Positions 40,164 to 56,380 of a stretch of 64,000 nucleotides of DNA are shown one piece after another. This DNA comes from a virus. The position numbers were made by a program, and so were the translations under genes. Numbering within the stretch: position 1 is the first letter of the stretch; each line of letters starts with the position of its first letter. Where the stretch lies: positions 25,261 through 89,260 of the IMG/VR virus record IMGVR_UViG_3300038465_000039; one strand, 5' to 3'. The notes beneath the pieces are model-generated. The model did no database searches and had not been told where the DNA came from. It saw only the letters and a list, made by a program, of their open reading frames with translations.

Positions 40164-41465
40164 GTGGCCGGGAAGTCTGCTGGCGCGGTCCCCAACATCG
40201 AGGAATATCTCCTCGAATACGAGCGACCGTATCTCTACCCGAAACAACTCGACGCGATCTTCGACGCGCGGCGCTATAGTTGGATCGAGGCATCGACTAA
40301 GGCCGGGAAGACATCTGCGTGTATCGTCTGGATATTTGAGCAGGCGCTGCACGGCCAAGAGGGATGGAACTACTGGTGGATTGCACCGGTGTCCGGTCAG
40401 GCCGATATCGCGTTTCGCCGCGCGCTACGTGCAATACCGCAGGAATTGAGGAACGAAAATCAGACTCTTAAGACGATCACGCTGATCAACGGCGCGGTGA
40501 TCTGGTTCAAGTCGGCCGACAAGCCGGACTCGCTTTACGGCGAAGATGTCTATGCCGCTGTGATGGATGAGGCGAGTCGCACCAAGGAAGATGCTTGGTA
40601 CGCTGTGAGATCGACTCTGACAGCAACGCGCGGACCGATACGCTTGATTGGGAATGTGCGCGGGCGCAGGAATTGGTTTTATCAAAATGCTCGGAAGGCC
40701 GAGCGCGGCGAAGATCCAAACCACGGTTACCACAAGATCACCGCAGTCGACGCGATAGCTGCGTATGTCCTTGAGCAGGAAGAGGTCGACGACGCGCGCA
40801 AAGTTCTGCCCGAGGCGGTCTTCAAAGAGCTCTACCTCGCTGAGCCATCCGACGATCAAGGCAATCCGTTTGGCCTGAAGGCGATCGCAAGGTGCGTTCA
40901 GCCGATGAGTGCCGGCGCCATCCCGGTGGTGCATGGTCTCGATTTTGCGAAATCGCAGGACTGGACCGTCGACTGCGGTCTCGATGAGCACGGCCGTCTT
41001 GCGAAATTTCTTCGCATGCAGATCGGATGGGAAGCGCAGATACCGATCTTGCGGGCATCGATCGGCACGACGCCGACGCTCGGCGACTCGACCGGTGTCG
41101 GCGACCCGATTATCGAACGCCTGCAGAAGGCTCCAGGCTCCAAGGTCGAGGGCTACATCTTCAGCCCGGGATCGAAGCAGCGGCTGATGGAAGGTCTCGC
41201 GCTCGCTATTCAGTCCGGCGACGTCTCATTTCCGGATGCGCCCGACGGCGTACTGCCGCACGATCATCCCGGCCACATACTTCGCGAACTGGAAATGTTC
41301 GAATACGAGTTTACCCGGACCGGCGTCCGCTATTCTGCGCCGGCCGGATACCATGATGACTGCGTCATGGCGCTTGCGCTGGCGGTCATGCACCGAACCC
41401 ATGCGAGGCTACCGATGAAGATCAGCAAATCGGTTCTTGCCAGAGCGCAGGGCGGTCGCCGGTGA
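40164..41465 (+). CDS. Terminase large subunit
   Basis: Walker A STKAGKT, VMDEA, GLDFAKSQD, DSTGVGDP, HDDCVMALAL. Confidence 0.93.
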   Translation: MAGKSAGAVPNIEEYLLEYERPYLYPKQLDAIFDARRYSWIEASTKAGKTSACIVWIFEQALHGQEGWNYWWIAPVSGQADIAFRRALRAIPQELRNENQTLKTITLINGAVIWFKSADKPDSLYGEDVYAAVMDEASRTKEDAWYAVRSTLTATRGPIRLIGNVRGRRNWFYQNARKAERGEDPNHGYHKITAVDAIAAYVLEQEEVDDARKVLPEAVFKELYLAEPSDDQGNPFGLKAIARCVQPMSAGAIPVVHGLDFAKSQDWTVDCGLDEHGRLAKFLRMQIGWEAQIPILRASIGTTPTLGDSTGVGDPIIERLQKAPGSKVEGYIFSPGSKQRLMEGLALAIQSGDVSFPDAPDGVLPHDHPGHILRELEMFEYEFTRTGVRYSAPAGYHDDCVMALALAVMHRTHARLPMKISKSVLARAQGGRR

Positions 41466-43978
41466 CAGTCACCCGCTACAAGCGCGACCGGTCCTCGGAT
41501 GCCATTAGGGACGCCGTGATGGGCGTCATTCGCCACAAGCGCGAAGCACAGCCGGCTGAGACCGCGAAGCCGGCGCCCCCCGCAGGCGATCTGAAGGCCC
41601 GTTCGGTGGAGGACCTGGAGAAGCACCACGCCGAAGTCGTCGCTCCGATGAAGATTAGCCCGACCACGTTGGCGCTCGCCAGGTCGAAGCGACGAGCGGG
41701 TGCCATCCAGGAGCAGGCTATCCGCAGCTCGTTCAAGGCTTATGAACCGCCACCGAATGTCCTGCCGAGTGGTGCTAAACCGGACATGGCGCTCGATAGC
41801 GGGCTCCAAGGCTGGGCTGAAACATCGGCAACGAATGCGTGGAACTTTGCTGGCGCGTTCAACAATTCCTTTGCGGAGGGAATAGGCTTTCTCGGCTACG
41901 CGTATCTTTCACAACTCACTGAACGTCCGGAGTACCGTCGAATCTCGGAACGCATCGCGATCGAGATGACGCGGAAATGGATCAGGCTCACGGTCTCAGG
42001 CGAGGCCGATCCGGAATCGGAGGGTGGCGACGACGACGCGAAAGCCAATGATGGCTTCGGTTACGATCGCCAGCCCGATGCTGATCTCGATGATGAGGAG
42101 CAAGACGACGCGGATGGTGCCGGCGGTGCCGTGGCTGATTTTGACGACGATCAAGATGATGAACCTACACCGGAAGAAAAGGCCCAGCGGAAACGCAACG
42201 AGGCCCTTCAGAAAAAGCTGAAGGAAATCGATGCGGACATGAAGCGCCTCGATGTCCGCGGCAAGTTCAAGAGCATCGCTGAGTTCGACGGCTGGATGGG
42301 CCGTTCACACCTCTACATCGATACGGGTGATGGCGACGATCCCGATGAACTGAAGAGCAACCTCGGCAACGGCAGCGATGATATCAGCAAGGGGAAGTTC
42401 AAGAAGGGTTCACTTCGGAACATAAAGAACATCGAAGCGATCTGGTGTTATCCGGTCAACTACAACGCCAACGATCCTCTTGCTGATGATTGGTACAATC
42501 CGCAGGTCTGGTTCGCGATGGCGAAGCAGATACATGTTTCCCGACTACTGACATTCGTTGGCCGGCCATTACCGGATATTCTCAAACCGTCATATGCGTT
42601 CGGCGGCTTGTCGATGTCGCAGATGGCGAAGCCTTATGTCGATAATTGGCTGAGGACACGCCAGGCCGTTACGAACCTGATTGAATCGTTCTCGACGAGT
42701 GGCGTCTACACCAATGCGCAATCCTTGCTGCAGGGTGGTGGTGAAGAGGTTCTCGACCGTATCGAGATGTTCAATGCCAATCGATCCAATCTCGGATCGA
42801 TGGTGCTCGATAAAGAGACCGAGGAGTTCTTCAATATTTCGACGCCGCTCGGGACGCTCGACCAACTGCAGGCGCAGAGTCTTGAGCAGTTGGCTGTGGT
42901 TTCCGGCATCCCGCTTATCGTGTTGCTCGGAATCTCGCCCCATGGGCTCAACGCCACATCGGAAGGGGAGCTCAGAACATTTTTTGACCTCATCCACGCG
43001 ATGCAGGAAAACCTGTTCCGGGACAAGCTGAAACGAGTCATCGACTTCATTCAGTTGCACCTCTACGGCGAAGTCGACCCAGCGATCGGCTTCGAGTTTG
43101 AACCGCTATGGTCACTCGACGAAAAGGGCGAAGCCGAGGTCCGCAAGATCAAAGCGGAAACGCACATGATCTATGTCGACGGTGGCATATTCGGTCAGGA
43201 GGAAGTCCGCAATATCGAGATCGACGACGACGACAGTCCATACAACGGTCTCGATCCCGACGACATGCCAGATCTTCAGGCCGAGGAAGATGCCGGCCTC
43301 GTGCCTGGCGGCGGTTCATCCGAGGGCGGTGAGGGTGGCAGCAGTCGCGCCGACAACAAGGAAGTCGATGGTGCGGCAGATGAACTGCCTCTGATTGCTA
43401 TCGATGCGGCTTTCAACGAAGCCGACCATCCGCGCGCCGACAACGGCGAGTTCGGCGAGGGCGGCGGTGGTAAACCCAAGAAGGCCCGGCTTACGCCAAC
43501 TGAAAAGTCCTATCTCGATAGTTACAGCGGTGATGACTTTCTCAAACTGAACGAGAAGCTGCGATCCGGGGAAGACACTGGCGCTGCGACGGCAAAGATC
43601 GATTCGGCGATCTCTAAATCGACCATTGAACCGGGCACGAAGCTATATCGAGGTATCAGCAAGGACGCGCTCAAGAAGCTTGTGGCCGGCGATAGCATCG
43701 AAGCCGGTCAGGTTTTGTCTGATGCCGGTTTCTTATCTACATCGTCCAGTCGCGATATCGCCGGCATGAATAGCATCGGTGGCGCACTCATAGAAATTGA
43801 AGTTGGTCAAGGCCAAAATGGTCTCGATATGTCAGAAATCAGCAGGAACAAGCACGAGAAAGAGGTTATCCTCCCGCGTAATTCGAAGATGAAGGTTCTC
43901 GGTCTCCGTGCTCCGAAAAAGCCCGGCGATCCAATTATCGTTCGAGTGGCGACCCATAATGAGGAGGAAGACTCATGA
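41462..43978 (+). CDS. DUF1073-type portal protein fused to a C-terminal ADP-ribosyltransferase domain
   Basis: EYRRISE...EMTRKW, IHVSRL, SGIP..LLG.SP.GLNATSEG; ART LNEKLR, LYRG, FLSTS, HEKEVILPR. Confidence 0.85.
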   Translation: MTVTRYKRDRSSDAIRDAVMGVIRHKREAQPAETAKPAPPAGDLKARSVEDLEKHHAEVVAPMKISPTTLALARSKRRAGAIQEQAIRSSFKAYEPPPNVLPSGAKPDMALDSGLQGWAETSATNAWNFAGAFNNSFAEGIGFLGYAYLSQLTERPEYRRISERIAIEMTRKWIRLTVSGEADPESEGGDDDAKANDGFGYDRQPDADLDDEEQDDADGAGGAVADFDDDQDDEPTPEEKAQRKRNEALQKKLKEIDADMKRLDVRGKFKSIAEFDGWMGRSHLYIDTGDGDDPDELKSNLGNGSDDISKGKFKKGSLRNIKNIEAIWCYPVNYNANDPLADDWYNPQVWFAMAKQIHVSRLLTFVGRPLPDILKPSYAFGGLSMSQMAKPYVDNWLRTRQAVTNLIESFSTSGVYTNAQSLLQGGGEEVLDRIEMFNANRSNLGSMVLDKETEEFFNISTPLGTLDQLQAQSLEQLAVVSGIPLIVLLGISPHGLNATSEGELRTFFDLIHAMQENLFRDKLKRVIDFIQLHLYGEVDPAIGFEFEPLWSLDEKGEAEVRKIKAETHMIYVDGGIFGQEEVRNIEIDDDDSPYNGLDPDDMPDLQAEEDAGLVPGGGSSEGGEGGSSRADNKEVDGAADELPLIAIDAAFNEADHPRADNGEFGEGGGGKPKKARLTPTEKSYLDSYSGDDFLKLNEKLRSGEDTGAATAKIDSAISKSTIEPGTKLYRGISKDALKKLVAGDSIEAGQVLSDAGFLSTSSSRDIAGMNSIGGALIEIEVGQGQNGLDMSEISRNKHEKEVILPRNSKMKVLGLRAPKKPGDPIIVRVATHNEEEDS

Positions 43979-44154
43979 TCGGAAGTTGTGACTGCTGTAA
44001 TCGAATTGACGTACCTGTGTCGCACGTCAGTGCTTGCTATGCTCATCCTGAAGCAACGGCATGCTTTCTTTGTCAGGGCGACAGTGAACCCGACCCTTAT
44101 GGCGAACTGGTCGTCGACGACGGCAACGAAGTCGAGATGGAAGACGACGACTGA
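43975..44154 (+). CDS. 59-aa Cys-rich protein
   Basis: Hand translation MIGSCDCC...ACFLCQG...DDD*; ATGA overlap with the portal stop. Confidence 0.5.
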   Translation: MIGSCDCCNRIDVPVSHVSACYAHPEATACFLCQGDSEPDPYGELVVDDGNEVEMEDDD

Positions 44155-44298
44155 TGAACCGAAGCGATCCAGTTGAAAAACGCAGGCTTGCATTGATGCG
44201 CCAGGCTTCCGGTCGTGCCAACAGCCGGTTCAGCATCGGCGGTTTGGTCAAGCAACGCGGCCACGCCCCGAAACCGATCACGCTGGCAACATGGTCCG

Positions 44299-44643
44299 AT
44301 GAACAGGACGAAGCTTCTGGCGGAACTGCTCGACCTGCATCTGTCGCGCACGATCAACCGACACGGGGCTGACCTCATGAGCTCAAAGTTGTCGATCGCC
44401 GCGGCCAAGATGCGGGAAAAGCGCAAAGCATGGGATGATCGAGCACAGTCGCTGATCGAGAATATGGACAAGCTCGATGTCCGTGCAAACGGCGCATTCG
44501 AGAAGCACGAGGATGCGCTTTCCAGCGCGGAGGCCGGCTTCCGCGAGATGGAAGACGCCATCCGGGATCTGGAAGGTGCAAACAACCCTCCGCAGGAGGG
44601 CTCCGGGCCAAGCTCGGACGAGTCGTTTCCAGAGGTCAAATAA
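44299..44643 (+). CDS. Coiled-coil hypothetical protein
   Basis: Helical ORF; start uncertain. Confidence 0.4.
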   Translation: MNRTKLLAELLDLHLSRTINRHGADLMSSKLSIAAAKMREKRKAWDDRAQSLIENMDKLDVRANGAFEKHEDALSSAEAGFREMEDAIRDLEGANNPPQEGSGPSSDESFPEVK

Positions 44644-44759
44644 ACCGCTGGCGTCCGCCTCAGATGCACTAGATCGGGCGGAAAGGCGCAATACCAGGAT
44701 TGCGCGACCGAATGTTAGACCGTATAGGTGACATCCCTTCAAGCATCGGGGAGGTCGCG

Positions 44760-45068
44760 ATGGGTCTGGCCGGGAAATTCATCTTCCACATGGGCGAGGA
44801 ATACTCCCGTCACGGCGAAATCATTGAGCAGATTTCGGATGAAATAATCCTTGTCCGCTTTGAGCATGGCTGCGCCAATTGTGAATGCAGCAACCGATCA
44901 AGCAGAATCGTACCGATCAGCATCAAGTCGCTGATGGTCGAGATCGGTGACTACGACGACGCCTGCGAGTTGTTCGAGACCCGTGCCGATCTGGACAAGT
45001 TTCTGACATGGCTGGAGACCCCTTCTGAAAAGGCTGAGCCGGCCAAGATCGTCAAGCTGGTAAATTGA
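44760..45068 (+). CDS. Hypothetical protein
   Basis: GGAGG RBS before MGLAGK. Confidence 0.55.
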   Translation: MGLAGKFIFHMGEEYSRHGEIIEQISDEIILVRFEHGCANCECSNRSSRIVPISIKSLMVEIGDYDDACELFETRADLDKFLTWLETPSEKAEPAKIVKLVN

Positions 45069-45072
45069 AGCC

Positions 45073-45693
45073 ATGAAGATTGTTACACTAGTCGAGGCTC
45101 GCAATACCCTGTCCAAACGGTATTTTACTGGAGTCCCCTGCAAGCGCGGGCACATAAGCGAGCGCAGAACGAGCACAAGGGCTTGTATCGCATGTTCCAG
45201 TTTCCATCGAGAGCAGAACGGTGATCAACACCGCTTTGCATCGCGAAGATGGGCTGCAAATAACAAGGAACGCGGAAAAGCTAACGGCATTAGGTGGCGG
45301 GCTGAGAACCGAGACTTAGTTAAACAAATAAGGCGAAATTGGTACGCTCTAAATTCCGCAAAGTGCGTGGCTGCCACCTTAGAATGGGCGAAGAAAAACC
45401 CGGAGAAGCGAAGCGCCACTGAGCGCCGACGCAAGGCGAGGAAGCGCGCCGCCGGGGGAAATCATACTGCCGACGATGTCGTTGAATTGTACAGGCTACA
45501 GCGTGGCAAGTGTGCTCATGCGTGGTGCAACGTATCCCTAAAACCTGGTTATCATGTTGACCACGTTCAGCCGCTAAAACGCGGCGGATCGAATGATCGG
45601 TCTAACATTCAGTTGCTTTGTCCTAGTTGCAATGTTCGGAAAAGCGCATCTGACCCGATTGAGTGGGCGCAGCGTCATGGACTCTTGTTGTAG
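45073..45693 (+). CDS. HNH homing endonuclease
   Basis: YFTGVPCKRGH; HVDHVQPLKRGGSNDRSNIQLLCPSCN. Confidence 0.9.
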   Translation: MKIVTLVEARNTLSKRYFTGVPCKRGHISERRTSTRACIACSSFHREQNGDQHRFASRRWAANNKERGKANGIRWRAENRDLVKQIRRNWYALNSAKCVAATLEWAKKNPEKRSATERRRKARKRAAGGNHTADDVVELYRLQRGKCAHAWCNVSLKPGYHVDHVQPLKRGGSNDRSNIQLLCPSCNVRKSASDPIEWAQRHGLLL

Positions 45694-46497
45694 ATGGCTA
45701 CGATCAGACGGACGAAGAAAACTCAACTCAGGCCAGTCCGTCCCAACGTCGGGATCATGCTGGCCTATCAAAAAAAACTTGATCGCTTGATCACTGACAT
45801 GCAAAAGTCTGTCGCTTTCCATATTCGAGCGGCTTACCGACAACATCCTCCATCAATGGCGCTTGACGATGCATTGCCAACCAATGCTCTGAAGAGGGTT
45901 ATAGAAACTCTCAAAAAACGTTGGTTAAAACAGTTCTCTGACGCCGCACCGAAGCTGGCGCAGTATTTCGCGACCGCGGTCAACAAGCGTACCGATGCTT
46001 CGCTGAAAAAGATATTGCGGGACGGCGGATTCTCAGTCCGCTTCCAGCAAACGCAGGCCATGAAAGATGTCGTCAAGGCCACGCTTGAGCAGAATGTGTC
46101 GCTCATCAAAAGCATACCTGAACAATTCTTGAAGAACGTCGAAGGCGATGTTTTCAGATCGATCCAGCGTGGTCGCGATCTCGGCGGTCTGACGAAGGCG
46201 CTCGAAAAGAACTATGGTGTCACACATCGGCGTGCGGCCTTCATCGCGCGTTCGCAGAACAATCTCGCAAGTGGTGCGATGACCGCGGTCAGATTTACCG
46301 AGCTCGGAATCGATACTGCCAAATGGCGCCATTCAGGCGGGGGCAAAACTAAAAGGCCCAGTCACGTTGCGAACAACGGAAAGACCTACAAAGTTTCTAC
46401 CGGCTGGTACGACCCCACTGTCAAGAAATTCATAGTTCCTGGAGAGCTCCCGAACTGCAGATGCGTGGCGATTCCAGTCGTCCCCGGATTCTCGTGA
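45694..46497 (+). CDS. MuF/SPP1 gp7-like head morphogenesis protein
   Basis: NVSLIKSIP, RAAFIAR.Q, RPSH...G, PGELPNCRC. Confidence 0.9.
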   Translation: MATIRRTKKTQLRPVRPNVGIMLAYQKKLDRLITDMQKSVAFHIRAAYRQHPPSMALDDALPTNALKRVIETLKKRWLKQFSDAAPKLAQYFATAVNKRTDASLKKILRDGGFSVRFQQTQAMKDVVKATLEQNVSLIKSIPEQFLKNVEGDVFRSIQRGRDLGGLTKALEKNYGVTHRRAAFIARSQNNLASGAMTAVRFTELGIDTAKWRHSGGGKTKRPSHVANNGKTYKVSTGWYDPTVKKFIVPGELPNCRCVAIPVVPGFS

Positions 46498-46620
46498 TCT
46501 GGCTTTCGTAGTTCGACCGGCGGAAACAAACCGCTGTCGACCCAAAGTGGGCGAGGGTACCGTTTCATCCACGAGCCAGCGCACATCTGTTGGCCCGATG
46601 CATGGTCAATACAGACCGAT

Positions 46621-46645
46621 GGAACAAATAAAACTCTGGCGCATT
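46621..46645 (+). promoter_or_regulatory. EcfG/sigma-T-type promoter
   Basis: GGAAC-N16-CATT upstream of a small membrane protein gene. Confidence 0.55.
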
Positions 46646-46676
46646 GCCTCGGCTTAACCCCCGGAGGATTACGTCG

Positions 46677-46838
46677 ATGGGTCTCATCATCCTGATACTG
46701 GTGCTGCTGTTCTTCTTCGGTGGTTTCGGAAACTACGGCGGTCGCGGTCAGTTTTACGGTGCCGGTGTCTACGGTGGTGGTGGTCTCGGTTTGATCGTGG
46801 TCGTTATCCTGATCCTTGTTTTGCTCGGCAGATTTTAG
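46677..46838 (+). CDS. Small Gly-rich membrane protein (DUF3309-like)
   Basis: GGAGG RBS; two hydrophobic helices, GGGGLGLIVVVILIL. Confidence 0.7.
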   Translation: MGLIILILVLLFFFGGFGNYGGRGQFYGAGVYGGGGLGLIVVVILILVLLGRF

Positions 46839-47103
46839 GAGTCGGCTATGGCAAACATCGGTCTGATCTTCCTGGCGTTCGCGTTCGTGTTCGCTTGCTT
46901 TTACACCTTCGGAATGAAGCAAATCGGCCGTGCCGACGTGCTCGGCTTGGTGCTTGCCTTCTGGATTGCAAGCGAGTTGATCGGTGCCTACCCTCGATTG
47001 TTTCATTGACGCGCCGGGATCGAGCGTTCTCAGCGATAGTCCGATATTACCTCCTGCGGAGCCGATGCCCCCTAGCATTTGCCGCGGATGCTGATATAAG
47101 GAT

Positions 47104-47367
47104 GATCTTCCGCAAGGGGTCGTAGAGCCTTCCCCTAGGTCGTAGCCAGTTTTCCGGTATCTGGCGCAACACAATACGACCGAAAACAGAAACCGGCGCG
47201 CACGTTGCCTCCATAGAGGGACAGAAGCGCGACATTTCGAGCCACCCCCGTAACGGTCGCAAGGCCAGAGGCGGGGAATGTTGGTCACCGACATGCGGAT
47301 CGAACGGTGACGGGTTTAGCGTCGATCACGTTTTGTAGAGGCCTCGACTTTACAGTCGGGGCCTTTT
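47104..47367 (+). ncRNA. Candidate structured non-coding RNA
   Basis: Extended -10 TGATATAAG (47092-47100), many nested helices, two possible pseudoknots, terminator at 47339-47367. Confidence 0.55.
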
Positions 47368-47396
47368 GCTTGTCGGGATTGCGGAGATCGCTTGTC

Positions 47397-47756
47397 ATGG
47401 CAAAGCTGGTCGTCCTGAACCGTCACTATTGGCCGAAGGGCGGCTACGGTCACTGGTGCCCGGGCTGCAACTCCGGGCACGAGATCAACGTCGACCAGCC
47501 GAATTCGTCGGGCGCGAAGTGGTCGTTCAACAACGACCCGCGCAAGCCTACCTTTTCGCCGAGCATCAACATGCGGGTGAACACGCAGGACATGGGCGAG
47601 CACTATCAGCCCGACATCGGAAGCACGGTCTGCCACTACTTCATTCGCGACGGTCACATCCAGTACCTCGGGGACTGTACGCACGAATTGAGGGGCCAAA
47701 CTGTCGATCTGCCGGACATGCCGCCCAATCAGTATCTTTCCTGTGCAAGGCTGTGA
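47397..47756 (+). CDS. DUF6527-like protein, copy 1
   Basis: WCPGC...WSFN...PTFSPSI...CHYFIRDG.I..L.DCTH. Confidence 0.75.
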   Translation: MAKLVVLNRHYWPKGGYGHWCPGCNSGHEINVDQPNSSGAKWSFNNDPRKPTFSPSINMRVNTQDMGEHYQPDIGSTVCHYFIRDGHIQYLGDCTHELRGQTVDLPDMPPNQYLSCARL

Positions 47757-48049
47757 CGTGAGTTCGCGCAAGGAATTGCTGCAAGCTGCCGGTGTCGTCG
47801 GCATCATGATCGCGGTGATGCTGATAGTGGTATTTATCGCGCGGAGATTTGTCTGATGTTGACTGTCCGGAAGAAACGCATACCAGCAAAAGGCTTTTCC
47901 GGGTTGGTCCGATACGGTCAAGCACGCCATGCGATGTATTGCGGATGGGCTTCCAATCTGCGGAAACTGGCTGCCCAATGTTCCAAGACCCATCTTGAGC
48001 AAATGCAGCAGCGTGCCTACATGCAGCGCCAATTTCGTCCTGTGCACTG

Positions 48050-48376
48050 ATGCAGGTCAGCCCGATACTCCGCAAGACTGTCACCGGACATGCGCACTGG
48101 TGTCCGGCGTGCGAGCAGGTCCACATCCTGCCGGACAGTTGGAAATTCAACGGCGATGTCGACAAGCCGACGTTCTCGCCAAGCTTCAAGCATACGCTGG
48201 TCGCACGGGCACCGCTGCACGGTCCTGATAATTTTCGGATTTGCCACTACATCCTGACCGACGGCAAAATTCAGTTCTGCCCGGACAGTTGGCATAAGCG
48301 TTCGGATATTGTATCGATGCCGCTGCTCCCTTCTCCTCACGAGGACGACGGGTTTCCGATCGAGACGCAGGACTGA
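48050..48376 (+). CDS. DUF6527-like protein, copy 2
   Basis: WCPAC...WKFNG...PTFSPS...CHYILTDG.I.FC.DSWH. Confidence 0.75.
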   Translation: MQVSPILRKTVTGHAHWCPACEQVHILPDSWKFNGDVDKPTFSPSFKHTLVARAPLHGPDNFRICHYILTDGKIQFCPDSWHKRSDIVSMPLLPSPHEDDGFPIETQD

Positions 48377-48576
48377 CCCATGAACTTAAAGTTCACCATC
48401 GAGGCTCGCGACGAGCACGGTCACGTCATTATCGACAAGACCGTGATCGAAACGAGCGGTGACGTCTCTGTCATTCCTGGAATGTATGTCGCAGCGAACG
48501 CCGTCGCCGGTGTCATCAACGAAAAGTTGGATAAGTGGACGTTCGATCAGAAAGAGATGCAGGAGAGCCAAGGCTG

Positions 48577-49056
48577 ATGCGTGAACATATTATTCCCTCG
48601 ATCGTCGCATCGGTGATCGCCTCCGGTGCCGCGATCGGCTTTGTCCATCTCGCGCACAAGCCGGTGGTGAACGTGGTCAACTCGGTTTCGACAAAACCGG
48701 TCTCAGATCAGAAGGCCGCACAACTCGCGAAGACGGTATGGCCCGAGATGGCGCAATCCGATATCGACAAGTTGACGGCGGCGGTGAAGGATCTGCCAGG
48801 CCTGCACCGCGTCACGATTTTTTGTGTCGAGGAGGGCAAGTGCGGTGATCTCGCGTTGAACCTGGACAATGCGTTCGAAAGCGCTCATTGGCAGAGCGAT
48901 GTCGTCAATTATCCGATGATCCAGCCAGGAATCATGACCGGCTCGAAAGTACTGCAGGCGGCCTTGATCGCGATTGGTATGGATGCGAAGCTTGACGAAA
49001 GCGTGCGCGCCAAGGAAGGCGATGCCATCGCTATCGGAAACCGCTATATCCCTTGA
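48577..49056 (+). CDS. Membrane-anchored hypothetical protein
   Basis: N-terminal hydrophobic helix; C-x5-C pair. Confidence 0.6.
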   Translation: MREHIIPSIVASVIASGAAIGFVHLAHKPVVNVVNSVSTKPVSDQKAAQLAKTVWPEMAQSDIDKLTAAVKDLPGLHRVTIFCVEEGKCGDLALNLDNAFESAHWQSDVVNYPMIQPGIMTGSKVLQAALIAIGMDAKLDESVRAKEGDAIAIGNRYIP

Positions 49057-49726
49057 AATAACAAGGCCCTCGCATCACGGGGTTGGAATGCAGAACTTCG
49101 GCAACTCAGTCGATTGGTGGACGACAACCAAGGCTTCTCCTGCTATCTTTCGACCATCCCATCTGACAGTTGAGATCGAGACCTATCTTCGCAGCGCGAT
49201 CGGTATTGATCCTGCAATTATCGCCGCGGAACTGAAACTTCCCGGTTTGGGTGAGAACCGTGTCCGGTCATGGCAGCGCCAACTCGGCTTGAGGCCGTGC
49301 GCGCCGAATAATGGTGCGGTCAAGCAGCGGTACGCGCTGGATCATCGTGGGCGTAATCGTGATGCCTGATATCTTCGATCCGTTACCGGTTAAGCCGAAG
49401 GCGACATCAAGCAATCTTGCCGGACCGCTCTGTATCGAGTGCGGCAAGAACCCCTCTGACGTTGTATGGGCGGCCGTTCTGATGGGGCGATGCCGAGATT
49501 GTGCTCGCGAGTGGGCGCTGCAGGTTCAGGCTGTTCATAGGGCTATGCGTTAGAGGTATAGTCATGGCTCAGCAGTGCGAGATCACGATTAGCCTTCGCT
49601 GGCGGTGGTGGGTATGGCCGCTGATGCGCGGTGCAGTGATCTGGTATTGTTGCGGCCTACCGGTCAATCCTCACAGGCTCGCTGACTGGATTGGTCGGCG
49701 CGGTGCCGTGATCGGTATCGACTGAC

Positions 49727-51652
49727 GTGCCAGTAAAATCTGCGGCGCAAAATCGGGCAATGTGGGCCGCAAGAGAAGGACGCTCGACTTTGGGAATCCC
49801 CAAGTCTGTTGCGAAGAAGTTTGTCGGTCCATCTGCCCATGACGCAGCCGGTGCCAAGATCGCTGCCGGGATCATCTTCGTTTCGCCTGATGGTGATGTT
49901 CTGCTGCTGAAGCGTGCCGGCGAGGAAGGCGTCGACAACTACGTCGGACATTGGGCGCTGCCTGGTGGTGGTGCTGAGGATGGTGAGACGCCGGAGCAAT
50001 GCGCGGACCGAGAAGCGGCCGAGGAGCTCGGCGGAGCGGCGCCGGTCGGACGCAAGCGTCTGGTCGACCGCAAGACGACACCGAACGGGATGGTGTTCCA
50101 TACCTTCGCTCAGCAGTCCGACAAGTTTACACCGAAACTGAACGAGGAGCACTCGGCCTTCGGATGGTTCCCGCTCAATGCTTTACCGGGGCCAGAAAAC
50201 GATCATGCACCGGAACCGATGCATCCCGCCGTCAAGGCGGTTCTATCGGATGGCCTCGGGATGGCTCAGGACATGTCGCCCGAGGACTGGACCGCACTGC
50301 GGGAGAACTTCGCAAAGTGGACCCGCGAGGAAGAAGCGGAACCGGAGCATGCCGGGGACGTGAATGCGGTGGTCACGACCGTCCGCAACGATGAAGGCGT
50401 GATCCTGCTCGATACTTCGGATGGCAAGACGGTGGAACTTGGCCGGGGACTCGCCGACGACAACCAGCCGCAGCTCGCCACCACGGGGAACACAGGCATC
50501 CCACTGGCGGCTTGGAACAAGAAGCGGAAGGCAAAGATCGCTCAGGATGCCATTTTCCGGGCCTGCGGAGGCCAAGGATGCGTTAAATGTGGTGGGTCCG
50601 GGGTATCGCCCCTGACCAAGGCACCAATGAAGCCCGGGCTCGGTGGGGCTTTTGATGCCTTGTCACCCGCCATCGCCGCTTGGAACCGGATGGCAGACGC
50701 CGAAGCCGCGCGCGCCCGCAAACCGAATGCCTGCCCGATCTGCGGCGGTACCGGTGAGCTCGCCGGGCCCGGCATCATCTGCGATGAATGCGGAGGCTCA
50801 GGCCTGATCGCGCAAGACAGCCGCAAGGCACCGGAACACACGCTGCTGGTGCGCTACGACGGCGATTTCAGCTTCAAGGGGCTGCTCGCACATCTGAAAC
50901 GGCTTGGTTCGATCGGGGCCTCGCGCACGATCGAGGCGCGCGACGAAGACGACAAGATCGTGCCGTTCGGTTGGGATGGCGACGGCGCCGACAAGATTTG
51001 GGATGCCGAGATAGACGGCGAGAAACTCGCGTTTGATCGCGCGGCGGTGTCTGGCGTTGAGCGCCATGGTCTAGCATTTGACCGCGCGCCGGATAGCGCG
51101 CGCAAGTTCGATGCTGACGGACGAATGCATGTCGAAGTTTCCAATATTTCGCGCGCAGCAGTTAACCCGTATTTAGGTCGAGAAATACCTTCATACAAAT
51201 CGCTCGGTCTTGATCCGGATAAAATCTATCATTTGCTTCGCGATCCCGAGGAACTTCAAAAAGCCGTTCCGACATTCAACAATCTGCCGCTGCTTGACGA
51301 GCATGTGCCGGTTTCAGCAGCAAGCCATCGACCCGAGCATGTCATCGGATCACTCGGCACGGATGCTGAATTCGACGGCGAATTCTTGAAGAATAGCCTC
51401 GTCGTCTGGACGGAACGCGGCATCAAAGCAATTGAGAGCGAGAAGAAGCGCCAAATTTCATGCGCCTATCGCTATACGCCGGTGCTCGAAACCGGCGTAT
51501 TCAAGGGGCATCCCTACTCCATAAAAATGACGGCCATAATCGGAAATCATGCCTGCATAGTGCCCGAGGGGAGGGCTGGCGACATGGTGATGGTTGCGGA
51601 TGGAGCTCTTGATCCTTGGGCTTTGGTAGAATCTGCTATTTTAGGTCTATAG
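49727..51652 (+). CDS. Polyprotein: Nudix hydrolase, small modules and DUF2213 putative prohead protease
   Basis: Nudix box GGAEDGETPEQCADREAAEELG; ISRAAVNPYLGREIP, LLRDPEEL, ISCAYRY, NHACIVPEGRAG. Confidence 0.85.
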   Translation: MPVKSAAQNRAMWAAREGRSTLGIPKSVAKKFVGPSAHDAAGAKIAAGIIFVSPDGDVLLLKRAGEEGVDNYVGHWALPGGGAEDGETPEQCADREAAEELGGAAPVGRKRLVDRKTTPNGMVFHTFAQQSDKFTPKLNEEHSAFGWFPLNALPGPENDHAPEPMHPAVKAVLSDGLGMAQDMSPEDWTALRENFAKWTREEEAEPEHAGDVNAVVTTVRNDEGVILLDTSDGKTVELGRGLADDNQPQLATTGNTGIPLAAWNKKRKAKIAQDAIFRACGGQGCVKCGGSGVSPLTKAPMKPGLGGAFDALSPAIAAWNRMADAEAARARKPNACPICGGTGELAGPGIICDECGGSGLIAQDSRKAPEHTLLVRYDGDFSFKGLLAHLKRLGSIGASRTIEARDEDDKIVPFGWDGDGADKIWDAEIDGEKLAFDRAAVSGVERHGLAFDRAPDSARKFDADGRMHVEVSNISRAAVNPYLGREIPSYKSLGLDPDKIYHLLRDPEELQKAVPTFNNLPLLDEHVPVSAASHRPEHVIGSLGTDAEFDGEFLKNSLVVWTERGIKAIESEKKRQISCAYRYTPVLETGVFKGHPYSIKMTAIIGNHACIVPEGRAGDMVMVADGALDPWALVESAILGL

Positions 51653-51733
51653 AAAGGTGATATAAAAACGGGACCGAACAGCGTTGGACGCGCTGATCGA
51701 TCCCTGACCAAGTGCGCTGGATGAGAACGCAAG

Positions 51734-52453
51734 ATGGCTAAAGAACAAATCCCATACTCTGGGCCTATTGTCACCAAGGCTGAAGCAAAGGCCGCCGGTG
51801 CCAAGAAGTATTTTACAGGCAAGCCCTGCATCCGGGGACATATCTCCGAGAGGTGGGTGAGCACGCGAACTTGTGTTGGGTGTGCGACGTCTGAGCCGAG
51901 GCTTAAGGCTGATCTAAAATACAGGTCGAGTCATAGAGAAGAAATTCGTGAGAAGACCGCAAGGTGGCGGGCAGAGAATCCTGAGCGAACGAGACAATCT
52001 TTAGCCGATTACTTTGCGGCGAATGAAGAGCAGATCAATCAGCGCAGACGCGATGATTATGCGGCAAATGCTCCGGCCAAGCGACTAGAGAAGAGAGAGC
52101 GGTACGCCGCCGATCCACTGCATTACCAGGAAATCAATCGGCGGTACGCCGAGGAAAATCCCGAAGTAATTAGAGCCATCAGGCGTAACCGTCGCGCTCG
52201 CAAGAGAGGCGCTGGCGGTAGCCATACAGCCGCAGATATCGAGTGGTTACTCAACAAACAGAAAAATAAATGCGCGCACTCATGGTGTCGCATCTCTTTG
52301 GCTGATGGTCACCACGTAGATCATATGGTGCCGTTAGCGTTAGGTGGTTCCAATGACCGCAGAAACATTCAACTGCTCTGCGAGCCATGCAATCTGAAAA
52401 AGCACGCAAAGCACCCGATAGACTTTGCGCAGGAGCATGGCTTGCTCCTATAG
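51734..52453 (+). CDS. HNH homing endonuclease (paralog of 45073)
   Basis: YFTGKPCIRGH; HVDHMVPLALGGSNDRRNIQLLCEPCN. Confidence 0.9.
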   Translation: MAKEQIPYSGPIVTKAEAKAAGAKKYFTGKPCIRGHISERWVSTRTCVGCATSEPRLKADLKYRSSHREEIREKTARWRAENPERTRQSLADYFAANEEQINQRRRDDYAANAPAKRLEKRERYAADPLHYQEINRRYAEENPEVIRAIRRNRRARKRGAGGSHTAADIEWLLNKQKNKCAHSWCRISLADGHHVDHMVPLALGGSNDRRNIQLLCEPCNLKKHAKHPIDFAQEHGLLL

Positions 52454-52463
52454 GGGCGAATCC

Positions 52464-53543
52464 ATGAGCAAGCTTCGTGATGCACTCCGCAAGAAATTCA
52501 AGACTCCTCGTGAGGCCATTCTGGCGCTCGGTCTCGACGAGTCACTCCTGACTGAGCGCGCCTATGATTCCGTGAACCCTCAACTGAAGGAGAAGACAAT
52601 GCAGAAGATCAAACTGTCCGGTCTCGGCACCGTAGCCTACGGCGCTCTGATGACCTTCCTGCGGCCGCAACTGGCGATGGATCAGACCATCGATCTCAAG
52701 CGTGGTCTGCGCAACATCAACGCCAGGAACTTCAAGGCCAAGCGTCCCGTACTGGCGGCGTGGATCAGCGAGTCCGTCAAGGACAAGCTCGATCCGCAGT
52801 TCGCGCATGATGGTGCGCTAAATACCGACGGTCTCGATGCTGTCCTCGACATGGTCGAACTCGCCCTCGACGATTTTCCCGAAGAGATGAAGGAAAAGAT
52901 GGACGAGAAAAAGGACAAGGCCAAGGACATGAAGCCCATGGCCGGCGCCAAGGACGAGGAATCCGACGAGGATTCCGACATGGATGCCGAAGACGAAGAC
53001 GAGACCGAAGAGGAGAAGGAGGCCCGCATGAAAAAGCGCGCCGCCGACAAAAAGGCCAAAGACAAGAAAATGGGCAAGGACAAGAAGGCCAAGGACAAGG
53101 CCGATGTCAACGAGGATCCCGAAGAGCACGATCCCGAGACACCCGAAGAGACCGCCAACGACGAGGACGACGACATGGAAGCGGCGATGGATGCAAAGAT
53201 CAACGCCGGTATCCAGGCCGGCATCAAGAAGGAGCGCGACCGCATGGAGGCCATCTCGGTCGCCAAGGATCATGTCCGTTCCCGCGTCGGCAATCTTTCC
53301 ATGGCGTTCGATTCTGCGGCTCAGGTCTACGCCAAGGCCATCGAAGTCGCCGCCGGCAAGAAACCGCCGAAGGATGCGAATGTCGAAATGCTGAAGTTCG
53401 CATTCGACAACCTTCCCTCGAAGGATGGTGGCCGCAACAAGCAGACCTACGCGATGGATTCGGCGCCGAGCACCGCGGCGAGTGATCTCGCCAAGCGCAA
53501 TCCTGCTCTTGCGAAGAACCTGGAGCGCATCGGGCGCCAGTAA
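52464..53543 (+). CDS. Putative scaffolding protein
   Basis: Highly charged, between protease and capsid genes; many A-x-D motifs. Confidence 0.7.
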   Translation: MSKLRDALRKKFKTPREAILALGLDESLLTERAYDSVNPQLKEKTMQKIKLSGLGTVAYGALMTFLRPQLAMDQTIDLKRGLRNINARNFKAKRPVLAAWISESVKDKLDPQFAHDGALNTDGLDAVLDMVELALDDFPEEMKEKMDEKKDKAKDMKPMAGAKDEESDEDSDMDAEDEDETEEEKEARMKKRAADKKAKDKKMGKDKKAKDKADVNEDPEEHDPETPEETANDEDDDMEAAMDAKINAGIQAGIKKERDRMEAISVAKDHVRSRVGNLSMAFDSAAQVYAKAIEVAAGKKPPKDANVEMLKFAFDNLPSKDGGRNKQTYAMDSAPSTAASDLAKRNPALAKNLERIGRQ

Positions 53544-53721
53544 CCGAGCGACGCGGCTTCCTCCGCTCGTTCGTCGCAGCCTGTCCGTTTGAGCCCACCC
53601 CTGTCCCGACGGGCAGGCTGCGTTAATTCAACAACCCTCTTTCCTTGATTGGATCGGGGGATTTTTTACATTACACTGCTCCCGTTCATTGCCTGATAGG
53701 CAGAAGGGGATCAGCCAAAAA

Positions 53722-54087
53722 ATGTCAATCACAGACGCATACTTTGCCGGATTGATCGACGGCGAAGGTCACATCACGTTAGAGAAAAGGTCTGGTAAAC
53801 AAGTCGGGACTATCCCGCTCATTCAGGTTGGCATGACTGATCGTGCGATTGTGCAGTTGCTCCAAAAAACTTACGGCGGAAGTTTTGCAGCAAAGAAGAT
53901 AAGAGAACCCTACAAGCAGATGTTCGTTTGGCGCGTGAAGCATGCACAAGCTCGCGTTACTTTGAAACGAATCCTGCCATATCTTCGCGTAAAACGTGAG
54001 GTTGCTCTTACCGTCTATAAATTCGCGTGCGAACGACGTGCATGGATTAGACAAAATACCGGTCGGACGAATTCTATCTCTGTCTGA
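53722..54087 (+). CDS. Single-motif LAGLIDADG endonuclease, free-standing
   Basis: AYFAGLIDGEGHI...ILPYLRVKR. Confidence 0.85.
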   Translation: MSITDAYFAGLIDGEGHITLEKRSGKQVGTIPLIQVGMTDRAIVQLLQKTYGGSFAAKKIREPYKQMFVWRVKHAQARVTLKRILPYLRVKREVALTVYKFACERRAWIRQNTGRTNSISV

Positions 54088-54120
54088 TCCGAACTCATCG
54101 ATTCCACCTGAAGCCAAGTG

Positions 54121-54148
54121 GCAGCACGAGTTTCGTGCTGCTTTTTTT
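54121..54148 (+). terminator. Intrinsic terminator
   Basis: GCAGCACGA-GTT-TCGTGCTGC-TTTTTTT. Confidence 0.75.
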
Positions 54149-54186
54149 GTCCCTCTTTCCGCAACATCAATCAGGAGAAAATTCCC

Positions 54187-55173
54187 ATGACGGACTTTCC
54201 AAACCAGGTCAACGCCTCGCAAGCACCCGGCGTAGCCGGTGACTTCGCATCGGCCAATCCGCGCAGTACCGTTCTGGCGGGCGAAGGTGCCCTGATTTCC
54301 GGTCTCGGTGTCATCAATGGCGCCACCGTACAAGGTGCTGTCGTCGGTCGCTTCGGTTGGTTGACCTATCAGACGATCGACAACGATAATGCTCCGGGCA
54401 CCGTCAACACCTTCGGCAGCGGAGTTCCACAGGGTCTTGTGGCCCGAAGGCAGGTCGGTCTGATCACGCAGTATCTCGGTACATCCGTTTTCTACTTCCA
54501 GTCCGGATTCCAGATCGCGCTCTACAACGAGGTGGATATGTGGGTGACGAACAACGGTGCCACCGCCGCTCAGGTCGGCCAGAAGGCGTTTGCGAGCTAT
54601 GCCGATGGTTCGGCCTCGTTCGCGGCTGCTGGCTCTACTCCGGCTGGTGGTTCCGGTTCGGCCTCGTCGATCGCAGCAGAAACCGCCAACTCGCTGACCA
54701 GCACCATCGTCGGCGACATCTTCACGGCAATCGGGACGCTTACGGGCAACTTCTATCCCGGCAGCATTCTGAGCGGTTCGGGGGTTGCCACCGGGACACA
54801 GATCGTCGCTCAGGTGCTGCCGCTGCTCCCCGGCGAGGCCCTGAACGGCCTCGGTCGATATGAAGTCAATATCCCCGAGCAGAACGTCACATCGACCACG
54901 ATTACCGGTACCTACGGTCTGTTGACCGTTGGCGGTACGGTGGTGAACGGATTCGGTCCCGGGCAGACCGTTAGCGGTTCCGGGGTCACGTCTGGCACCG
55001 TTATCTTCCAGCAACTCACCGGTACTGCGGGCGGAGCCGGAACTTACGTGGTCAGCCCTTCCCAAACCGCCAACTCGACCGCGATCACTGCCGCTGGTTC
55101 GATCGAGACGAAGTGGTACGCCAGGTCGGCGGGAGCCGTCGGCGAGATCATCAAAATCTCGAACATCCAGTAA
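54187..55173 (+). CDS. Head decoration/auxiliary capsid protein
   Basis: FPNQVN..QAPGVAGDFASANPR start; immediately upstream of the major capsid gene. Confidence 0.7.
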   Translation: MTDFPNQVNASQAPGVAGDFASANPRSTVLAGEGALISGLGVINGATVQGAVVGRFGWLTYQTIDNDNAPGTVNTFGSGVPQGLVARRQVGLITQYLGTSVFYFQSGFQIALYNEVDMWVTNNGATAAQVGQKAFASYADGSASFAAAGSTPAGGSGSASSIAAETANSLTSTIVGDIFTAIGTLTGNFYPGSILSGSGVATGTQIVAQVLPLLPGEALNGLGRYEVNIPEQNVTSTTITGTYGLLTVGGTVVNGFGPGQTVSGSGVTSGTVIFQQLTGTAGGAGTYVVSPSQTANSTAITAAGSIETKWYARSAGAVGEIIKISNIQ

Positions 55174-55227
55174 CCGCATTCTGAAAAACCGGAGTGGTCG
55201 TAAACGGCCATTCCTCCATCCTTCACC

Positions 55228-55255
55228 AAGGCGTCTCGTCATGAGCGCCTTTTTT
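55228..55255 (+). terminator. Terminator-like hairpin before the capsid gene
   Basis: AAGGCG-T-CTCG-TCA-TGAGCGCCTTTTTT. Confidence 0.5.
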
Positions 55256-55276
55256 ATTTTGGAAAGGCACTTACAG

Positions 55277-56380
55277 ATGAATCGCCATGAAGCAGCTGCC
55301 GCGTATGCGGCCGAACGCCACATCTACGAGTCCAGCGGTGCGGTATTCGAAAACGTCAAGATGTTCATCCCCGACGGATGGAAACACGACTTCAACCTCG
55401 CGATGGATCAAGGCCTCGCGATGGACGCGCAGCCTCAGTTGTCGACGACACAGAACACCGGTATTCCGGTTTGGCTGTCGACGATGATCGATCCCACGGT
55501 CTATGAGATTCTGTTCTCCCCGCTGAAGGCCGCCGAAATTCTCGGCGAAGTGAAGAAGGGCGACTGGACCTTGAATTCCGTGATGTTCCCGACCGCGGAA
55601 CACACCGGCGAAGTCTCGAGCTATGACGACTACGTCAACAACGGTTCGGTTTCCACCAACCTGAACTTCCCGTCACGCCAGCCGTACCTCTATCAGACCA
55701 TCCTTCAATACGGTGACCGCGAGCTCGATGTCGTCGGCCTCGCCAAGATCAATTGGGTATCGGAACTGAATGCGGCCGCGGCCTGGGCACTGAACCGCTA
55801 TCAGAACCAGACCTACTTCTTCGGGGTGAAAGGTCTTCAGAATTACGGCATCCTGAACGATCCGAACCTGACCGCCGCACTGACGCCCGGACCGAAGGCG
55901 TACGGCAACAATCTGTGGATTACGAACGGCATCATCACCGCAACGCCGAACGAGATCTATCTCGATATCCAGGCACTCATCCTGCAGCTGATCCTGCAGT
56001 CCGGCGGCAACATCAATCAGGAATCGCCGTTCGTGCTGGCGCTTTCACCGGCATCGAAGTTCGCGCTGACCGCAACGAACTCGTTCGACGTCAATGTCAG
56101 CGACTTGCTGAAGCAGATTCCGAACCTGAAGATTATCGATGCGATCCAGTATCAGGCTCAGACGACGGCAAACCCGCAGGGTGTTGTCGGCGGCAACTTC
56201 ATGCAGATGATCTGCACCTCAGTTCGCGGGCAGCAGGCCGGCTTCTGTGCGTTCAACGAGAAGATGCGTTCCCATCGTCTGATCCCCGACCTGTCGTCGT
56301 GGAAACAGAAGCTGAGCGGCGGCACGATGGGTGCTATTTACCGGCAGCCCTGGTGCGTCAGCAGCATGTTGGGTATCTGA
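55277..56380 (+). CDS. Major capsid protein (DUF2184-like)
   Basis: AMDAQP..., GEVKKGDW, SYDDY, YFFGV.GL.NYG.LNDPNL. Confidence 0.88.
   Translation: MNRHEAAAAYAAERHIYESSGAVFENVKMFIPDGWKHDFNLAMDQGLAMDAQPQLSTTQNTGIPVWLSTMIDPTVYEILFSPLKAAEILGEVKKGDWTLNSVMFPTAEHTGEVSSYDDYVNNGSVSTNLNFPSRQPYLYQTILQYGDRELDVVGLAKINWVSELNAAAAWALNRYQNQTYFFGVKGLQNYGILNDPNLTAALTPGPKAYGNNLWITNGIITATPNEIYLDIQALILQLILQSGGNINQESPFVLALSPASKFALTATNSFDVNVSDLLKQIPNLKIIDAIQYQAQTTANPQGVVGGNFMQMICTSVRGQQAGFCAFNEKMRSHRLIPDLSSWKQKLSGGTMGAIYRQPWCVSSMLGI

Follow-up and report, generated by a model that had tools for sequence, protein, structure and literature searches.

A-x-D motifs as candidate cleavage sites of a DUF2213 prohead protease in the enzyme-bearing head module of an uncultured phage

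The head module and its A-x-D sites

The window analysed here, a 64-kb stretch of the 89,260-bp IMG/VR contig IMGVR_UViG_3300038465_000039, encodes a phage head module at 40164-56380 on the + strand, and the tripeptide A-x-D recurs in its portal, MuF, protease, scaffold and capsid proteins. The genes of the module are, in order, those of the large terminase, a portal protein with a C-terminal ADP-ribosyltransferase (ART), an HNH endonuclease, a MuF protein, several small open reading frames (ORFs), a 641-residue ORF with Nudix and DUF2213 domains, a second HNH endonuclease, a scaffold-like protein, a LAGLIDADG-like protein, a minor capsid protein resembling XM1 gp53, and a capsid protein of the PF09950 type. 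No DNA similarity to cultured phages was found beyond short matches within the capsid gene, at 66-82% identity. The features that concern the A-x-D sites, in coordinates of the window, are these:

41462..43978, + strand: portal protein with C-terminal ART, 838 residues (Pfam Phage_portal_3, formerly DUF1073, at residues 147-567, E 9e-72)
41786..41797, + strand: N-terminal portal site M-A-L-D, residues 109-112, the predicted end of a propeptide, at a position conserved among relatives
43394..43405, + strand: I-A-I-D, residues 645-648, at the junction of portal linker and cargo module; fusions in relatives have A-x-D at the same place
43412..43453, + strand: tag F-N-E-A-D-H-P-R-x3-G-x-F, directly 3' of the I-A-I-D site ([FW]xExxHPR in relatives)
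43481..43900, + strand: ART domain, the cargo (PF03496, ADPrib_exo_Tox, residues 674-813, E 5e-20; phrog_802, Alt-like ART, E 9e-6)
45694..46497, + strand: MuF-like head morphogenesis protein (Phage_Mu_F, E 1.5e-12; phrog_324, E 3e-70) with M-A-L-D at residues 55-58 (nucleotides 45856-45867)
49727..51652, + strand: 641-residue polyprotein comprising leader, Nudix, short modules, zinc-finger modules, a domain of about 70 residues and the DUF2213 protease
49727..49843, + strand: leader peptide, residues 1-39, ending in A-H-D; conserved in Nudix-bearing homologues, with a dip in model confidence at residues 38-40
49844..50272, + strand: Nudix hydrolase module, residues 40-182, ending in M-A-Q-D (Pfam NUDIX, E 5e-19)
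50465..50503, + strand: copy of the capsid N-arm, QPQLATTGNTGIP, just 3' of L-A-D-D
50657..50806, + strand: swappable cassette, residues 311-360, holding the second zinc-finger module between the borders G-A-F-D and I-A-Q-D, delimited by BLASTP blocks
51071..51082, + strand: L-A-F-D directly before the protease fold, a predicted self-cleavage site, conserved in homologues
51083..51601, + strand: DUF2213 prohead protease domain (PF09979), residues 453-625, with the candidate triad H526, S578, H608
52464..53543, + strand: scaffolding protein, 359 residues from its ATG (phrog_2229, positions 204-419); the corresponding 372-residue ORF begins at 52425
55241..56380, + strand: major capsid protein (phrog_264, E 6e-62) with the tandem L-A-M-D-Q-G-L-A-M-D at residues 53-62 (nucleotides 55397-55426)

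Besides the listed sites of the portal (MALD and IAID), MuF (MALD) and capsid protein (LAMDQGLAMD), ORF 49727-51652 carries AHD at 37, AQD at 180, AGD at 209, ADD at 243, AQD at 272, AFD at 308, AQD at 362, AFD at 435 and AFD at 450, and the scaffold ORF at 52425-53543 carries AYD at 46, AMD at 84, AHD at 127, AMD at 254, AFD at 294, AFD at 326 and AMD at 343. Every motif named by the original prediction, which had been made from the letters of this stretch, was found in its place; AFD 326 of the scaffold and five more sites of ORF 49727-51652 (at 83, 404, 454, 617 and 627) were not on its list.

The number of sites was compared with composition-preserving shuffles (5000 per protein) and with 61 other ORFs of the window, taken from a rough gene call by codon usage. 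The protease ORF has 14 A-x-D tripeptides where 6.0 are expected (p = 0.001), and the 372-residue scaffold ORF has 17 where 5.7 are expected (p = 0.0002), or 10 against 3.0 (p = 0.0004) once its K/D/A-rich middle is removed. For these two proteins together, A-x-D ranks first of the 400 gapped dipeptides (31 against 11.7 expected; Poisson 2e-6), and the excess of Ala-Asp pairs exists only at a gap of one residue, gaps of 0, 2, 3 and 4 giving 8, 6, 9 and 7 pairs against the same expectation. The 61 other ORFs show no over-representation, with 64 sites against 80 expected. The claim that A-x-D recurs at domain borders of most head proteins was borne out as to the presence of the sites, but it overstates their enrichment, which among the head proteins is seen only for the scaffold and the protease polyprotein.

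Within the polyprotein the sites favour disordered sequence. An AlphaFold model of the whole 641-residue ORF has a mean predicted local distance difference test score (pLDDT) of 68, with the Nudix and DUF2213 domains above 85. Segments with pLDDT below 50 make up 32% of the residues and contain the P1 Asp of 10 of the 14 sites (binomial p = 0.003); they hold 10 A-x-D where their own composition predicts 3.2, and the well-folded parts hold 4 against 3.0. The A-x-D signal is real in this phage.

The domain content proposed for the polyprotein also proved correct: a Nudix domain at 45-158, three zinc-finger motifs of the form CxxCxGxG and a DUF2213 domain at 459-625 are all there. Homologues with the same leader, MPxxSxxQxRxM, at their N-terminus support the GTG start. 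Both enzymes fused to head proteins appear intact, the Nudix box G-x5-E-x7-R-E-x2-E-E-x-G at residues 81-102 within a domain of pLDDT 85-97, and the R-S-E signature of the portal ART in its proper order (LYRG 728-731, STS 759-761, EKE 799-801). ART is part of the portal polypeptide and Nudix is part of the protease polypeptide, so that both are carried covalently on head proteins, and A-x-D separates carrier from effector in each case, I-A-I-D ahead of ART and A-H-D and M-A-Q-D around Nudix, as it does in relatives.

Conserved positions and exchanged cassettes in relatives

A search with the DUF2213 part of the polyprotein (E <= 1e-5) yielded 943 proteins of 352-1122 residues, of which the best 120 were kept. 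Positions were also compared in 80 IMG/VR loci plus the phages PB1 and Bcep1, which gave the whole module in one piece, and only distinct proteins were counted. In the capsid protein, A-x-D lies 8-13 residues before the conserved N-arm (anchor A-Q-P-x-L-x-T-x-x-N-x-G-[IV]-P) in 50 of 51 distinct anchor-bearing homologues, the exception having G-V-D; random 9-residue windows of the same proteins contain A-x-D in 4% of cases. The protease fold is directly preceded by A-x-D in 61/61 distinct proteins of the loci and in 118/119 anchor-bearing homologues among the best 120 of the 943, mostly as L-A-F-D-R (the exception, P0016, has V-F-D). L-A-F-D-R is retained even where the DUF2213 domain begins the protein and only 3-10 residues stand ahead of it. 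The portal has A-x-D 12-50 residues upstream of its core motif in 47 of 50 distinct anchor-bearing portals, typically in the setting P-P-G-V-x-P...L-A-M-D; the other three comprise two S-M-D and one false anchor. This count leaves aside 18 portals in which the regular expression found no anchor, and 20% of random 41-residue windows contain the motif. At the aligned MuF site, A-x-D is present in 66 of 68 distinct homologues.

The enrichment extends beyond this phage. Outside the protease fold of the best 120 of the 943 proteins, A-x-D is about twofold enriched, in N-terminal extensions (378 against 165 expected; 82/120 sequences have an extension of at least 30 residues) as in C-terminal parts (1041 against 529; present in 111/120). 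It has the largest excess in count among gapped dipeptides in this set, the others with high ratios being conserved local motifs. A side observation concerns coliphage TLS (L083, 12912-14021). Its head maturation protease, gp33, belongs to DUF2213 and has R-F-D at the A-F-D position; the scaffold part of gp33 is rich in K/R-x-D sites, and the TLS capsid protein has K-N-D and A-S-D near its N-terminus. The gp33 sites suggest a P1 Asp common to the DUF2213 family, with a P3 residue that varies by clade.

Cassettes appear to have been exchanged at the sites, as the original prediction had anticipated. When the 641-residue ORF was compared by BLASTP with its three closest relatives, P0002, P0003 and P0004, a block of similarity ended each time at D310 of G-A-F-D. 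Similarity resumes at I361 of I-A-Q-D in P0002, at E432 just before L-A-F-D in P0004, and at E370, six residues past a site, in P0003. Where this phage has a 50-residue zinc-finger module, P0002 has about 260 residues consisting of an HPR tag and a domain with no Pfam match; since the BLASTP blocks flank D310 and I361, the module is the swapped counterpart of that segment. The Pfam-less domain of about 260 residues follows an HPR tag in all three relatives, at residues ~270-530. Nudix-bearing relatives, when aligned, have the following order of parts: a leader ending in [A/G]-x-D, Nudix, a conserved A-x-D about 20 residues further on, a variable region, one or two A-x-D, and the protease.

Portal fusions follow the same rule. 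In eight of the nine portal-cargo fusions of relatives A-x-D is at the start of the cargo or a few residues from it, and the ninth (L046) has G-M-D, so that with this phage included nine of ten joints adjoin A-x-D. Most joints continue as x-x-[FW]-x-E..HPR, here I-A-I-D-A-A-F-N-E-A-D-H-P-R, and the portal tag at 43412..43453 is the single HPR...G.F match in the whole 89-kb genome. Carriers vary for both enzymes. Many phages have Nudix on the protease, and Bcep1 and L053 have it on the portal; ART is carried by the portal in this phage and in at least seven of the loci, and L006 and L018 encode it in separate large ORFs. Nudix and ART behave as cargo, because they move as units between portal, protease and separate ORFs. 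The N-terminal fusions of DUF2213 proteins are common and diverse among the best 120 of the 943, many with Nudix and others with ART plus Nudix, a GNAT acetyltransferase or topoisomerase IB.

The mature capsid N-arm is also nearly duplicated within the polyprotein, as QPQLATTGNTGIP at 50465-50503 compared with QPQLSTTQNTGIP at 55430-55468 of the capsid gene. The polyprotein copy directly follows A-D-D as the capsid copy follows A-M-D, and it recurs in P0002, P0003 and P0004 and, more loosely, in P0010. This peptide may act in docking or as a decoy.

The DUF2213 enzyme and probable cleavage after aspartate

The protease domain is a clear member of DUF2213 (PF09979), scoring 154.3 bits against a cut-off of 22 over residues 459-625, and matches phrog_2229 at E 3e-81; in the literature searched, DUF2213 is treated as no more than a domain of unknown function or a 'putative scaffolding protein'. 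The model of the domain has a pLDDT of 86, with L-A-F-D inside its unstructured residues 1-13. Its best structural match is T4 gp21 (5jbl; VIA-align Z 10.8, root-mean-square deviation 2.7 A over 129 residues), followed by herpesvirus proteases at Z 9.2-7, with unrelated MCE domains next at about Z 5. Foldseek also matched herpesvirus proteases and T4 gp21, with a probability of 1.00 to the Epstein-Barr virus protease. The predicted model has the fold shared by assemblin and the prohead serine proteases of the T4 gp21 type. The fold is taken from prediction because a profile search of solved structures gave a single match, a fragment of Pa193 gp24 (deposited as 'scaffolding protein', with residues 286-326 modelled). 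An alignment of 37 sequences shows no variation at H526, S578 and H608; these residues stand in assemblin order, the numbering is nearly colinear with that of gp21 (aligned ranges 16-173 and 16-172), and they are a candidate triad. Several Arg residues are invariant as well. The domain is most likely a serine protease with the fold of T4 gp21 and herpesvirus assemblin, its activity being predicted from the model.

T4 gp21 itself cleaves after Glu by an [L/I]-x-E rule. The closest published parallel is gp245 of the Salmonella jumbo phage SPN3US, which cuts after A-X-E with Val favoured at P4 and Ser at P1', and which strips N-terminal propeptides off portal, capsid and ejection proteins, cutting the long ones repeatedly (PMC10052503). 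SPN3US gp245 and phiKZ gp175 are like the present protease in belonging to the gp21/assemblin fold class and in a site with Ala at P3, any residue at P2, an acidic P1, a small P1' and a hydrophobic P4. They differ in that P1 here is Asp and not Glu, the Pfam family is DUF2213 and not that of T4 gp21, and the genome is one of 89 kb and not a jumbo genome; moreover, the cargo of this phage is covalently attached to protease and portal, whereas SPN3US has separate ejection proteins, and cleavage here is predicted.

Structures of PB1-like phages bear on the same point. The head module is shared with the PB1-like Pseudomonas phages (PB1, E217, Pa193) and with Burkholderia phage Bcep1; in them it comprises a DUF1073-type portal, MuF, a DUF2213 protease-scaffold, a decoration protein like XM1 gp53 or similar, and a DUF2184-type capsid protein. 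These phages have A-M-D at the aligned portal and capsid sites, and the Bcep1 portal ends in a Nudix domain. Their protease and scaffold form one polypeptide with no N-terminal extension, whereas here each has its own gene, an HNH gene stands between the two, and the protease bears a 450-residue polyprotein. The capsid L-A-M-D of this phage aligns with S-A-M-D of the Pa193 capsid protein; PB1 and Pa193 read S-A-M-D64-S65-N66, and the deposited E217 capsid chain begins at N66, two residues past the Asp. Of the 765 residues of the E217 portal the model covers 97 to 528, PB1 has A-M-D at 74-76 of its portal, and the first 93 residues of the Pa193 portal are missing from both the map and liquid chromatography-mass spectrometry (PMC11456595). 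Residues 286-326 of Pa193 gp24 remain in the virion (PMC11456595); they fall within an A-x-D-free stretch of about 140 residues flanked by sites at ~212 and 356, and the C-terminal 120 residues contain seven sites. The XM1 capsid protein lacks density for 30 N-terminal residues (PMC10457771). A literature search for N-terminal proteolysis of the PB1-like major capsid protein gave no result. These structural data fit cutting after Asp, short of proof. Beyond residue 528, where the E217 model stops, the C-terminal part of the PB1 (L001) portal (~529-769) contains A-G-D at 537-539 and A-L-D at 588-590, and the unseen C-terminal ~235 residues of PB1-like portals may be a further piece released by the protease.

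In the mechanism that would account for these observations, the protease recognizes A-x-D, usually in the form of a hydrophobic residue, Ala, Met/Phe/Gln/Leu and Asp, followed by Ser or Ala, and cuts after the Asp. Polyprotein, scaffold, portal-ART, MuF and capsid protein would co-assemble into a prohead, in which the protease would trim N-terminal propeptides of about 112 residues from the portal, about 58 from MuF and 62 from the capsid protein, and would dice the scaffold so that it can exit. It would also cut its own N-terminal extension and the C-terminal extension of the portal at each linker, freeing the 39-residue leader, the Nudix hydrolase, short peptides, the zinc-finger modules and an ART that starts with the HPR tag. 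Folded modules of ~16-20 kDa would stay with the DNA, because they are probably too big for the capsid pores, and would probably enter the host at infection like T4 Alt and the T4 internal proteins.

That chains are cut after the Asp of A-x-D is likely. Release of Nudix and ART inside the head follows from such a cleavage code and is plausible, and for their retention in the head and delivery to the host the chances are slightly below even. Taken whole, with A-x-D as the recognition site of the DUF2213 protease and the freed enzymes staying with the DNA and probably entering the host, this is the best explanation and a reasonably probable one. The proposal that A-x-D is the protease site gained from the conserved positions, the disordered linkers, the gp21/assemblin fold of the enzyme and the start of the E217 chain; cutting in this phage itself is inferred.

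An explanation that keeps the cleavage but gives up the delivery holds that the N-terminal modules are propeptides or assembly aids (for targeting, folding or the timing of protease activation), or enzymes for the producing cell, that are later degraded or expelled with the scaffold. The 39-residue leader, the N-arm copy and the ~70-residue domain have no enzymatic signature, as it would expect, and some modules may serve as a targeting device since the protease of this clade has no fused scaffold. It has more difficulty with the intact catalytic signatures of Nudix and ART, with their cargo-like shifts as units between carriers, and with T4 Alt, an ART that is packaged and processed by the prohead protease. 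Packaging of ARTs, Alt included, is discussed in PMC9503650, and on the other side mature SPN3US heads are without most propeptides (PMC10052503). On balance this explanation is unlikely, yet it is the strongest competitor.

If A-x-D were instead conserved for docking or for structure, such as a contact of scaffold or N-arm with capsid or protease, and not scissile, one would understand why L-A-F-D-R is kept where cutting would remove almost nothing, and why a copy of the capsid N-arm adjoins one of the sites. Such a role is hard to reconcile with the occurrence of the motif in unstructured linkers of unrelated contexts, the portal-cargo joints among them, with the E217 capsid chain that begins two residues past the aligned A-M-D, and with an SPN3US protease of related fold that cuts at A-X-E (PMC10052503), and it is highly improbable. 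Least credible of all, and close to negligible, is that the pattern arises by chance from composition. The low-confidence segments are indeed rich in Ala (16%) and Asp (10%) and the middle of the scaffold is rich in Lys, Asp and Ala, but the shuffles, the restriction to a one-residue gap, the threefold excess in linkers (10 against 3.2) and the conservation of positions in relatives all argue against it.

Several points weigh against release at A-x-D by the DUF2213 protease. Folded domains enclose two of the sites, 83 in the Nudix box and 617 in the fold of the protease, and these are probably uncut. Count enrichment is absent from the portal (8 against 7.3), MuF (1 against 1.1) and capsid protein (2 against 1.4), and the tighter pattern hydrophobic-A-[MFLQIHY]-D, which has 16 matches in the five head proteins (2,497 residues) and 3 in 12,222 residues elsewhere, was picked post hoc from the head proteins. 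When gapped dipeptides with an expectation of 20 or more are ranked by observed/expected ratio, A-x-D comes third in the N-terminal and sixth in the C-terminal parts of the family. The positional counts measure conservation rather than independent events, because the homologues are related to one another. The protease of this phage has no fused scaffold, which bears on how it enters the prohead, and HK97-type proteases are thought to digest themselves and exit the capsid. The first 65 residues of the E217 capsid protein, which have no density, are described as 'cleaved or disordered' (PMC10329688), and absent density in cryo-electron microscopy (cryo-EM) does not prove cleavage.

Neighbouring genes, known systems and wider meaning

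The remaining annotated genes of the module are three that resemble endonuclease genes and that of the decoration protein:

45073..45693, + strand: HNH endonuclease gene immediately 5' of MuF (Pfam HNH, E 7e-12)
51734..52453, + strand: HNH endonuclease gene between the protease and scaffold genes (Pfam HNH, E 1e-10)
53689..54087, + strand: LAGLIDADG-like endonuclease gene, preceded by the scaffold gene and followed by that of the minor capsid protein (phrog_5046, E 2e-19; Pfam LAGLIDADG matches are weak and fall below the gathering cut-off)
54118..55173, + strand: minor capsid (decoration) protein, XM1 gp53-like (PF23982, E 1.4e-13; phrog_2122, E 7e-32)

The protease ORF covers positions 5-184 of phrog_2229 ('head maturation protease') and the scaffold ORF covers positions 204-419; because the two match separate parts of this family, they are two genes here and one protein in most relatives. 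Protease and scaffold in a single polypeptide are typical of the phrog_2229 family rather than defining, this phage lacking the trait and L003, L024 and L025 also having split genes. Splitting of a protease-scaffold gene by the HNH gene at 51734-52453 was considered and rejected, as the closest relatives, L003 and L024, have both ORFs separate and adjacent with no HNH gene. The split predates the HNH gene, which occupies the gap.

The two HNH genes are paralogous, and each of them, like the LAGLIDADG-like gene, fills an intergenic gap in the head module. In a scan of 82 related loci, the HNH query matched ORFs in L038 and L041 only, and no homologue of the LAGLIDADG-like gene was found in the related loci. 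All three look like recent homing-endonuclease insertions, because L003, the closest relative, is without them at these places. Two small paralogous ORFs between MuF and protease (47307-47756 and 48050-48376) share H-W-C-P-x-C ... C-H-Y, gave no family assignment and have no A-x-D.

T4 and the jumbo phages offer well-known examples of maturation proteases and packaged effectors. The likeness to T4 gp21, its internal proteins and Alt is that head-internal enzymes, ART included, are loaded, trimmed by the protease and injected with the DNA in T4, as is proposed here. T4 internal proteins enter the prohead by means of a capsid targeting sequence (PMC3012670), which is a short N-terminal sequence on free-standing proteins, whereas the cargo of this phage lies within the portal and protease polypeptides. 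Fusion of such enzymes to portal, MuF and capsid-processing peptidase has been published, with packaging inferred (Iyer et al. 2022, PMC9503650), and effector domains fused to MuF and portal have been described as likely to be packaged and injected (Iyer et al. 2017, PMC5512222; Jamet et al. 2017, PMC5576092, on MuF toxins). No release motif is given for these effector fusions and polyvalent proteins in the available text of the three articles; in text searches, 'DUF2213' did not occur in PMC5512222 nor 'cleav' in PMC5576092. To these the present locus adds A-x-D punctuation, an adjoining HPR tag and cassette exchange bounded by the motif. The literature searched contained no description of an Asp-specific rule for DUF2213 proteases or of cargo punctuated by it, though subscription papers and closed supplements may hold N-terminal data. 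The kind of system is already known; the Asp-specific rule and the punctuation of cassettes by it are apparently undescribed in the literature searched.

A very large group of phages, the therapeutic PB1-like Pseudomonas phages among them, uses the DUF2213 family. A cut-site rule would give the mature ends of their capsid, portal and MuF proteins, would account for density gaps in published cryo-EM maps, and would predict which fused enzymes (Nudix, ADP-ribosyltransferase, acetyltransferase, topoisomerase IB) are freed in the head, possibly to face host defences as the DNA enters. A bolder generalization, tentative and rather doubtful at present, is that an [A/G/S]-x-D site, often with the tag [F/W]-x-E-x-x-H-P-R-x3-G-x-F, constitutes a portable grammar by which any enzyme can be plugged into the portal, MuF or protease of DUF2213 phages (PB1-like, Bcep781-like, T1-like and hundreds of uncultured ones), with the N-terminal polyprotein as a magazine of injected effectors and the N-arm copy docking it where no scaffold is fused. 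If this were true, the injected proteins of thousands of phages would be readable from sequence alone, and the heads of therapeutic phages could be loaded with foreign proteins by design.

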